DNA from: a virus
Lineage: Duplodnaviria; Caudoviricetes
Direction: 5' to 3' (one strand)
DNA length: 64,000 nucleotides
Virus record (IMG/VR): IMGVR_UViG_3300025141_000018
The translations under genes were made by a program, and so were the position numbers. The stretch's first letter is position 1. Each line of letters begins with the position of its first letter. Under the pieces are notes generated by a model. That model made no database searches, was not told the DNA's origin, and saw only the letters and a list, made by a program, of their open reading frames with translations. Of this stretch, positions 5,497-5,815 are shown piece by piece.

Positions 5497-5815
5497 AAAG
5501 GTTGATTCTGTTTCCAGGTTCAACCTTTAAAACCCACTAAATTATGCGGCTAACGCCATTGCATAATTAGGACTATACTCTGCATTGTTTGCAGTTATTG
5601 TTAATACAGTCTCTCCGATGCATCATTACGCTGTCGAAATCTATTTCGCCCCCATCAGCGAAATACAACATCTAAAATCCATATTAACCCTCCGGAGCCC
5701 AATAAAATTACAAAGGCCCAAAATAGGTTTTGATTGCTCATTGTTGTACCTCTCTGGTGGAGGCGGGCGGTATCGCACCGCCGTCCAAACGTCGTCAACA
5801 AAGTGTCATCGACCG
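5497..5815 (-). ncRNA. ssrA: Circularly permuted (two-piece) tmRNA; tag ANNAEYSPNYAMALAA*
   Basis: Acceptor piece ends ...GGCGGTGCGATACCGCC-CGCCTCC-A-CCA at 5755; coding piece starts GGGGGCGAAATAGATTTCGAC at 5653; G3:U70 pair and A73; TAACT precedes the resume codon GCA; tag ORF 5592-5542; outer ends are approximate. Confidence 0.92.
5655..5741 (-). CDS. 28-aa single-TM peptide in the tmRNA intervening segment (MSNQNLFWAFVILLGSGGLIWILDVVFR)
   Basis: SD GAGAGG directly after the CCA, ATG at 5741, stop TGA ending 1 nt before G1 of the coding piece. Confidence 0.6.
   Translation of the reverse strand: MSNQNLFWAFVILLGSGGLIWILDVVFR

Follow-up and report, generated by a model that had tools for sequence, protein, structure and literature searches.

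A putative membrane-peptide gene under purifying selection in the intervening segment of a permuted phage tmRNA gene

Two-piece transfer-messenger RNAs (tmRNAs), encoded by circularly permuted genes, have been published for phage Melnitz and for pelagimyophages (PMC9004378), in a paper where the spacer between the pieces is undiscussed and the word 'intervening' is absent. The 2025 tmRNA database paper (PMC11915505) mentions a transfer RNA (tRNA) gene and a repeat as oddities in intervening sequences, and no protein genes. In both sources, the intervening sequence is taken as non-coding, in contrast to the permuted tmRNA gene described here, where it appears to be a selected peptide gene. This tmRNA gene lies with all its parts on the minus strand of the virus record IMGVR_UViG_3300025141_000018 (Duplodnaviria; Caudoviricetes), a stretch of 64,000 nucleotides (nt) that was analyzed as a whole and is called the window below. 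The closest published analogue is the intervening sequence of Coxiella burnetii 23S ribosomal RNA, which likewise holds an open reading frame (ORF), S23p, in an excised, stem-closed spacer of a stable RNA, and which its authors regard as a selfish element whose protein is apparently not made (PMC4990558). The Coxiella element differs in residing in another RNA, in being excised by another enzyme and in its greater length (428 nt), whereas the window spacer has a native Shine–Dalgarno (SD) sequence and shows purifying selection. Group I introns with homing-endonuclease genes also nest a protein gene in a removed part of a tmRNA gene; they are self-splicing and mobile, and they sit in the T-loop of a one-piece tmRNA (PMC11915505). 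The window shares the nesting, without intron or endonuclease, and its peptide gene is housed in the permuted gene's native spacer. Full-text literature searches returned no account of a tmRNA spacer that holds an ORF, and relative to the literature searched, an earlier note on this DNA was fair in calling the arrangement a candidate for a novel system.

The locus was identified as a circularly permuted two-piece tmRNA gene from its covariance score, its tRNA-like domain and its tag frame. The Rfam model RF04321 (tmRNA_permuted) matched at 5811..5542 with 78.4 bits over model positions 1–213 (gathering score of 47), and ARAGORN called a 'Permuted' tmRNA at 5849..5451 with the tag ANNAEYSPNYAMALAA. 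The tag frame encodes this same peptide, with a resume codon and an ALAA-type hydrophobic tail followed by a stop. In the acceptor stem, GGGGGCG (from 5653) is paired with the CGCCUCC that stands before ACCA, and G3 is opposite a U. A T-arm and an encoded CCA are present, and the 3' half of the domain lies upstream of the 5' half. The permuted tmRNAs of Alphaproteobacteria and marine T4-like phages have the same order (acceptor piece with CCA, intervening segment, coding piece), the G3-U pair, an ALAA tag and end pairing. The earlier note had described the 101-nt intervening segment (IVS) as filled by an ORF, in which the SD GAGAGG is followed by a hydrophobic frame of 28 codons that opens with the ATG at 5741, and one nucleotide separates its TGA from G1. 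This description was exact. The ATG occupies 5741-5739 and the TGA 5657-5655, with a single T at 5654 before G1 at 5653. The ORF listing of the window gives the same frame and peptide, with the start extended to an upstream TTG inside the acceptor piece. The encoded peptide has a polar N terminus followed by an 18-residue hydrophobic stretch. The coordinates of all parts are collected in Table 1.

Relatives were gathered in three ways, namely through the neighboring cell-wall hydrolase, with a CCA-spacer-G1 pattern, and with an acceptor-arm pattern blind to spacer content. The 150 permuted tmRNAs obtained (ARAGORN, IMG/VR loci) comprised 124 distinct phage spacers. A spacer was counted as ORF-bearing when an ATG 5–22 nt after the CCA opened a frame of 20 codons or more that included a transmembrane-like window. 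Such a membrane-type ORF was present in 38 of the 124 spacers, a share that is only a rough guide to phage tmRNAs in general, since the search patterns require the CCA and, in one scan, GAT before G1. All ORF-bearing relatives are uncultured contigs, and one of them (L001) is identical to the window across the whole gene. Dinucleotide-preserving shuffling of the 124 spacers (200 shuffles) gave 1.9 ± 1.5 ORF spacers with a maximum of 8, about 20 times fewer than the 38 observed. About 11% of the shuffled spacers gained an ATG ORF of at least 20 codons 5–22 nt after the CCA, and about 1.6% were also transmembrane-like. Therefore, an ORF in a single spacer is suggestive only, and the comparative data are decisive. 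The earlier note had named related phage ssrA spacers as the place to look for a lost ORF or SD or a broken frame. Among the 32 distinct spacers whose tmRNA tag is of the class A[ND]N.[DE]Y, as in the window, 31 have a membrane ORF, an outcome in favor of the note. The sole exception in this clade, L278, has a spacer of 182 nt with a hydrophilic, lysine-rich ORF of 52 codons instead, so that the spacer looks like a slot able to take other small genes.

The ORF-bearing spacers share a common build, with an SD after the CCA, an ATG 8–21 nt into the spacer and 23–32 hydrophobic codons. In 28 of the 38, the stop ends 1 nt before G1, and in six it lies 9–12 nt earlier. The MFxxW family (L113, L152 and L171) and L192 have no in-frame stop before G1; their frames run 12–66 nt into the coding piece with non-conserved ends, so the message would be stop-less after cleavage by ribonuclease P (RNase P). 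The peptides of this family start with MF-D/E-x-W-H/Q-W-V-Y, and the spacers lie at 883-979 of L113 (minus strand), 4354-4451 of L152 (plus strand) and 7942-8039 of L171 (plus strand). Spacer peptides fall into many families that cannot be aligned as DNA. Aligned as protein, all families begin with polar or acidic residues, continue with a hydrophobic stretch of about 18 residues and have an aromatic residue, W or Y, in a shared column. Spacers devoid of the ORF (L027, L071, L079 and many of L082-L198) very often have TAA or TAG right after the CCA (TAAACAC, TAGATAC, TAAGCAC) and end in TGAT. The last four spacer bases are more varied in the sampled Alphaproteobacteria (TGAT, TCAT, TTAT and ATAT). 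For comparison with bacteria, 50 distinct permuted tmRNAs of Alphaproteobacteria were examined, whose spacers measure 5–133 nt, 12 of them at least 75 nt. None contained an ORF confined to the spacer, and the sole formal hit reads through the entire coding piece into the tag. One unpublished genome entered only the count of tmRNA-bearing genomes, and its sequence stayed out of this control.

Selection on the spacer ORFs was evaluated from substitution patterns. The ratio of nonsynonymous to synonymous substitution rates (dN/dS, Nei–Gojobori) was 0.09–0.42 across six spacer-peptide families, and the pooled value was 0.20 in the ORF frame versus 0.74 and 2.99 in the other two frames. Variable alignment columns were distributed over codon positions 1, 2 and 3 as 40/13/66 (chi-square p = 2e-8). 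The window's own family, in which the ORF is kept in L001-L004, gave a dN/dS of 0.09–0.10. One of its members, L002, has tmRNA pieces identical to those of the window and a spacer only 83% identical, with the frame kept. In L003 and L004, spacer and tmRNA pieces are equally diverged from the window (83–89% identity), and the ORF differences fall at third codon positions in 7 of 9 and 9 of 12 cases, respectively. The frame is unbroken by indels among near relatives. In addition, an SD core (GGAG, GAGG or AGGA) was found in the first 12 nt of 25 of the 38 ORF spacers and of only one of 80 others (Fisher p = 5e-15), with a predicted anti-SD pairing of −5.4 versus −0.45 kcal/mol. These comparisons establish the gene and its selection. 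The earlier note's proposal that the spacer is a translatable coding unit agrees with the SD, the conserved ORF, purifying selection in the correct frame only and the single hydrophobic helix.

A profile of 22 peptides was searched against 1.84 billion representative proteins and gave 8 matches, all of them the same spacer ORFs miscalled with tmRNA flanks. Some of the miscalled database proteins P0004-P0009 (39–62 amino acids) carry an N-terminal extension from the translated acceptor arm; other miscalled proteins continue C-terminally as 'WWG...', which is the TGA-TGG-GG junction with TGA read as Trp. In a collection of 15 billion proteins, 8 of 10 spacer peptides were absent, and the two present are nameless. 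From these comparisons of sequence, we conclude that the spacer ORF is a genuine gene, of a family limited to tmRNA spacers. The likeness to sarcolipin (Pfam PF05366) is one of shape only, about 30 residues and one helix, and the window peptide gave no match to it. The peptide of L229 reached 16.9 bits against this family, below the cut-off of 26.4, and sarcolipin and influenza M2 matches of one relative were rejected as below threshold.

With the spacers anchored at their ends for comparison, one universal closing helix appears in a fixed register, in which base i pairs with base L-3-i. The register is kept in 35 of 38 ORF spacers and 78 of 84 other spacers, and it leaves the last 4–6 spacer bases, usually ending in TGAT, unpaired before G1. 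In the window, the helix is an 11-bp stem (5752-5742 with 5670-5660) that appears in the minimum free energy (MFE) folds both of the IVS alone, a closed hairpin of −26.9 kcal/mol (z of −2.2), and of the 325-nt precursor (z of −6.3), where helix and acceptor stem are stacked into one long rod. Its 5' strand comprises bases 3–6 of the SD and all nucleotides from there up to, but not including, the AUG, and the last five codons supply its 3' strand. Compensatory changes were found from A-U to G-C (L001 versus L003) and from G-C to A-U (L005 versus L035, a synonymous GAC to GAT change). The helix is weaker in ORF spacers, with a median of −10.6 versus −14.4 kcal/mol in the others (p = 2e-10). The closing helix and the occlusion of the SD can likewise be taken as established. 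Because the SD and the nucleotides that follow it as far as the AUG are occluded by the helix in ORF spacers, a precursor would probably be either translated or else folded or processed as tmRNA, but not both at once. The cultured Methylophilales phage Melnitz (MZ577097; L081:15693-16145) has a 142-nt spacer with the usual closing helix, and a GGAG is followed after 7 nt by an ATG just inside the helix, opening a candidate frame for a basic, non-hydrophobic peptide that crosses G1; its record annotates only 'SsrA' at this locus.

In 34 of the 38 ORF-bearing genes, a TAAATA motif stands at a fixed distance, mostly at −73 from the first spacer base (5827-5822 in the window). TAAATA is the core of the T4 late promoter (TATAAATA), and as a putative promoter here it would start the transcript near the 5' end of the acceptor piece. 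A scan of both strands of 5400-6000 for sigma-70-like promoters gave none; other phage promoter types were outside that scan. Metatranscriptome contigs from two studies span 5478-5641 and 5497-5643. They run from the terminator to 10–12 nt short of G1 and represent the coding piece alone, which hints weakly at expression of the RNA and a cut near G1.

The reading that we consider fairly probable is that the IVS of the permuted tmRNA gene is also a small gene, with its own ribosome-binding site, a selected single-helix inner-membrane peptide and a competition between ribosome loading and processing. One precursor RNA, probably transcribed from a T4-type late promoter, would contain the acceptor piece, the IVS, the coding piece and the terminator. 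Ribosomes would load mainly on the nascent precursor, during the interval of about 80 nt before the 3' strand of the helix is transcribed. A terminating ribosome would hold CGC in its P site and UGA in its A site and would protect about 15 nt downstream, from G1 to about G9. With the 5' strand of the acceptor stem occupied by the ribosome at the UGA, neither folding of the tRNA-like domain nor an RNase P cut would occur until termination. After release of the ribosome, the rod and the tRNA-like domain would fold, the SD would be locked, and maturation would discard the IVS to give the two-piece tmRNA. Each tmRNA precursor would give roughly one round of peptide synthesis, late in infection. 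As the peptide is too short to exit the ribosome tunnel before termination, its membrane insertion would follow release. We infer the loading, blocking and locking steps from the combination of a selected gene and an initiation region that is half of the processing helix, and translation, its timing, its exclusion with processing and the membrane insertion are to be read in the same way. The earlier note's idea that peptide synthesis is tied to tmRNA maturation is plausible on this model, and it gains structural support from the conserved closing helix that buries the SD and from a terminating ribosome that would cover G1. Our best guess is that the peptide would act late as a modulator or perturber of the host inner membrane.

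Several observations weigh against this reading. With the SD and the AUG-adjacent bases buried in a stable rod of acceptor stem and closing helix (predicted fold), the folded RNA would be translated little, if at all. RNA evidence is limited to contigs of depth 2–4, none of which spans the IVS or the acceptor piece, and at this depth they speak neither for nor against translation or removal of the IVS. In blastn searches against cultured phages, the window tmRNA gave no match, the family B tmRNA gave only short T-arm matches in actinophage tmRNAs and the Melnitz tmRNA matched Melnitz itself only, so that no cultured phage with a membrane ORF was found with these three queries. No significant match to Pfam, NCBIfam or PHROGs was obtained for 8–10 representative peptides, and the window and its T4-like relatives differ in the genes next to the tmRNA, which give no functional hint. 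Kinship among the sequences inflates the significance of the shuffle test, though the families are many and diverse. Finally, the 3' strand of the helix is rich in pyrimidines and on its own imposes Phe/Leu-type codons on the C-terminal end of the ORF, and therefore part of the apparent peptide conservation is an RNA constraint.

The messenger RNAs of type I toxins such as hok/sok and tisB encode a tiny hydrophobic peptide, and long-range pairing with the RNA's own 3' end keeps their ribosome-binding site inaccessible. The window peptide shares the tiny size, the hydrophobicity and the predicted fold-back sequestration of the SD, but it matches none of these families, and its sequestering helix is the processing helix of the tmRNA precursor. 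The product could accordingly be a toxin of type I or act in lysis like a holin, as a helix that forms pores or depolarizes the membrane and whose messenger is silenced by the 5'–3' fold-back; this we regard as possible, though on balance doubtful. The small size and single hydrophobic helix fit, and so does a central small-residue motif (GSGG in the window, G-x-x-A/G in relatives). The predicted lock of the initiation region by the 3' end recalls the hok mRNA, which is held inactive by fold-back inhibition. The late-promoter motif lies upstream, and in the window, a multi-helix protein of 75 amino acids and a cell-wall hydrolase follow directly downstream. Nevertheless, searches of Pfam, NCBIfam and PHROGs matched neither a toxin nor a holin family, the hydrolase is not adjacent in relatives and the sigma-70-like scan of 5400-6000 found no antisense promoter. 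The type I toxin likeness drawn by the earlier note is thus left without a family match or an antisense promoter in that scan.

The ORF could also be a cis-acting device resembling a leader peptide, in which ribosome transit keeps the precursor unfolded or protected and times the folding and processing of the tmRNA, the peptide being a by-product. The position of the SD and AUG region inside the closing helix, the stop placed 1 nt before G1 in 28 of 38 spacers, the loop exactly filled by the ORF and the weaker helix where an ORF is present are all compatible with such a device. The unrelated ORFs of other spacers, that of L278 (52 amino acids, hydrophilic) and that of Melnitz, would suit it as well. 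An open frame alone would suffice for this purpose, however, while the amino acids are conserved outside the helix too, with a dN/dS of 0.09–0.25 in families A, B and MDG, and all families share the polar N terminus, the stretch of about 18 hydrophobic residues and the aligned W/Y. We therefore consider this device unlikely.

A selected gene expressed for its peptide, as favored above, was also weighed against the possibility that the IVS is a built-in substrate of trans-translation. Once the IVS is excised, trimming of its single-stranded 3' tail GCUGAU would remove the stop (−4 to −2), and the product, made from a non-stop RNA and given the phage's own tag, would serve as a membrane-anchored decoy or adaptor for host proteases. 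The stop does fall within the four unpaired bases before G1 in 28 of 38 spacers, and the MFxxW family (L113, L152 and L171) and L192 offer no in-frame stop before G1 at all. Against this, TGAT precedes G1 in 76 of 80 ORF-less spacers as well, and its presence therefore need not be tied to the ORF; the stop falls 9–12 nt earlier in six spacers, and the predicted pairing of the SD in the excised hairpin argues against translation after excision. This makes the proposal quite improbable. Equally hard to credit is a single circuit of spacer peptide and tmRNA, in which a peptide made from non-stop RNA (by processing or 3' trimming) would be tagged by the phage's own tmRNA and would then occupy or redirect host proteases late in infection. 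Within such a circuit, the non-stop message would be obligatory in the relatives with no stop before G1, a corollary to which we give just as little credence.

If the spacer were nothing but RNA, a linker whose structure serves processing, both the ORF and the SD-like purines would be by-products of the helix and of a U-rich composition. The universal closing helix does need a pair of purine-rich and pyrimidine-rich strands, and some ORF appears in about 11% of shuffled spacers, but the frame-specific selection with its third-position variation, the SD core in just one of 80 ORF-less spacers despite the same helix, the roughly 20-fold excess of hydrophobic ORFs over shuffles and the intact frame across indels in near relatives all oppose this reading, which is already disfavored and which we hold to be very improbable. 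A chance ORF was rejected from the shuffle excess and the frame-specific selection.

Spacers of two-piece tmRNAs are annotated and modeled as throw-away RNA, and here, selection in many independent phage lineages shows peptide coding. New in this analysis are the single-register end pairing of the spacers, the census of membrane peptides, the SD contrast between spacers with and without the ORF, and the late-promoter motif at a fixed distance. The peptides constitute a class of small phage membrane peptides missed by gene callers. Judged by sequence, one segment of a stable-RNA precursor would also act as messenger RNA; the selected gene is what the comparisons display, and its translation is deduced from it. 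A single RNA would then choose between messenger and stable RNA, and the location of the ribosome-binding site inside the processing helix makes a competition between translation and RNase P testable. There is also a warning for annotation, since some database 'proteins' are a spacer ORF read into the tmRNA (TGA as Trp) or begun inside the acceptor arm.

Table 1. Parts of the permuted tmRNA locus in the window (positions from the first letter of the stretch; "-" denotes the minus strand).
Feature	Position	Strand	Basis or comment
TAAATA motif	5822..5827	-	T4-type late-promoter core; putative promoter of the tmRNA precursor
Acceptor piece (T-arm, acceptor-stem 3' strand, CCA at 5757-5755)	5755..5811	-	Rfam alignment, ARAGORN 3' tRNA domain
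Intervening segment (IVS), from CCA to G1, 101 nt	5654..5754	-	Rfam, ARAGORN, sequence reading; folds as a closed hairpin
Shine–Dalgarno GAGAGG, immediately after CCA, 7 nt before ATG	5749..5754	-	Sequence reading
ORF, 28 codons + TGA, encoding MSNQNLFWAFVILLGSGGLIWILDVVFR; hydrophobic helix at residues ~6–23	5655..5741	-	Sequence reading, ORF listing
IVS closing helix, 5' strand (SD bases 3–6 to the base before AUG)	5742..5752	-	MFE folds, register in relatives
IVS closing helix, 3' strand, in the last ORF codons (D-V-V-F-R)	5660..5670	-	MFE folds, compensatory changes
Coding piece, from G1 (GGGGGCG) to the terminator hairpin; tag frame at 5592-5542	5497..5653	-	Rfam, ARAGORN
Terminator-like hairpin, 9-bp stem, then T run	5491..5528	-	Sequence reading, folding; one RNA contig ends at 5497

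The terminator hairpin at 5491-5528 was absent from the output of a simple consensus scan. After it, the window carries at 4543-5475 (minus strand) a protein of 75 amino acids with two or three hydrophobic helices and a charged tail, starting at the ATG at 5475 with its own AGGAG, and then a cell-wall hydrolase of the Hydrolase_2 (SleB-type) family, whose N terminus has a lipobox-like FIGC and whose gene starts 437 nt downstream of the IVS. The two might form a holin–endolysin pair, whose adjacency to the tmRNA is not kept in relatives. In 15 relatives, the hydrolase was located 1–3.5 kb upstream or was not seen within 3.5 kb, so that a holin-type linkage to the endolysin gene is not conserved. 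The tmRNA of relatives lies between a PD-(D/E)XK nuclease gene and an ORF of about 75 codons, as in Melnitz.

The window is a contig of a marine T4-type myophage, with a T4-like terminase, a sheath, a gp41-like helicase and a UvsX-like RecA. Its large terminase (38009-39562, minus strand) is nearest to those of the jumbo phages PA5oct, Phosso and Atu_ph07 (46–53% identity), unlike the tmRNA, hydrolase and nuclease genes, which resemble those of marine T4-like contigs. A SET-domain protein of 98 amino acids (6298-6594, minus strand) is encoded two genes upstream of the tmRNA. The Rfam freshwater-2 motif (RF02980) was matched at 28500-28574 on the plus strand with 58.2 bits (threshold of 49.9). 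A cluster of tRNA-Tyr, tRNA-Thr and tRNA-Asp occupies 59087-60071 on the minus strand, and a glutaredoxin-like ORF of 80 codons (CxxC, 59728-59970) is placed between tRNA-Tyr and tRNA-Thr, as another protein gene amid stable-RNA genes.
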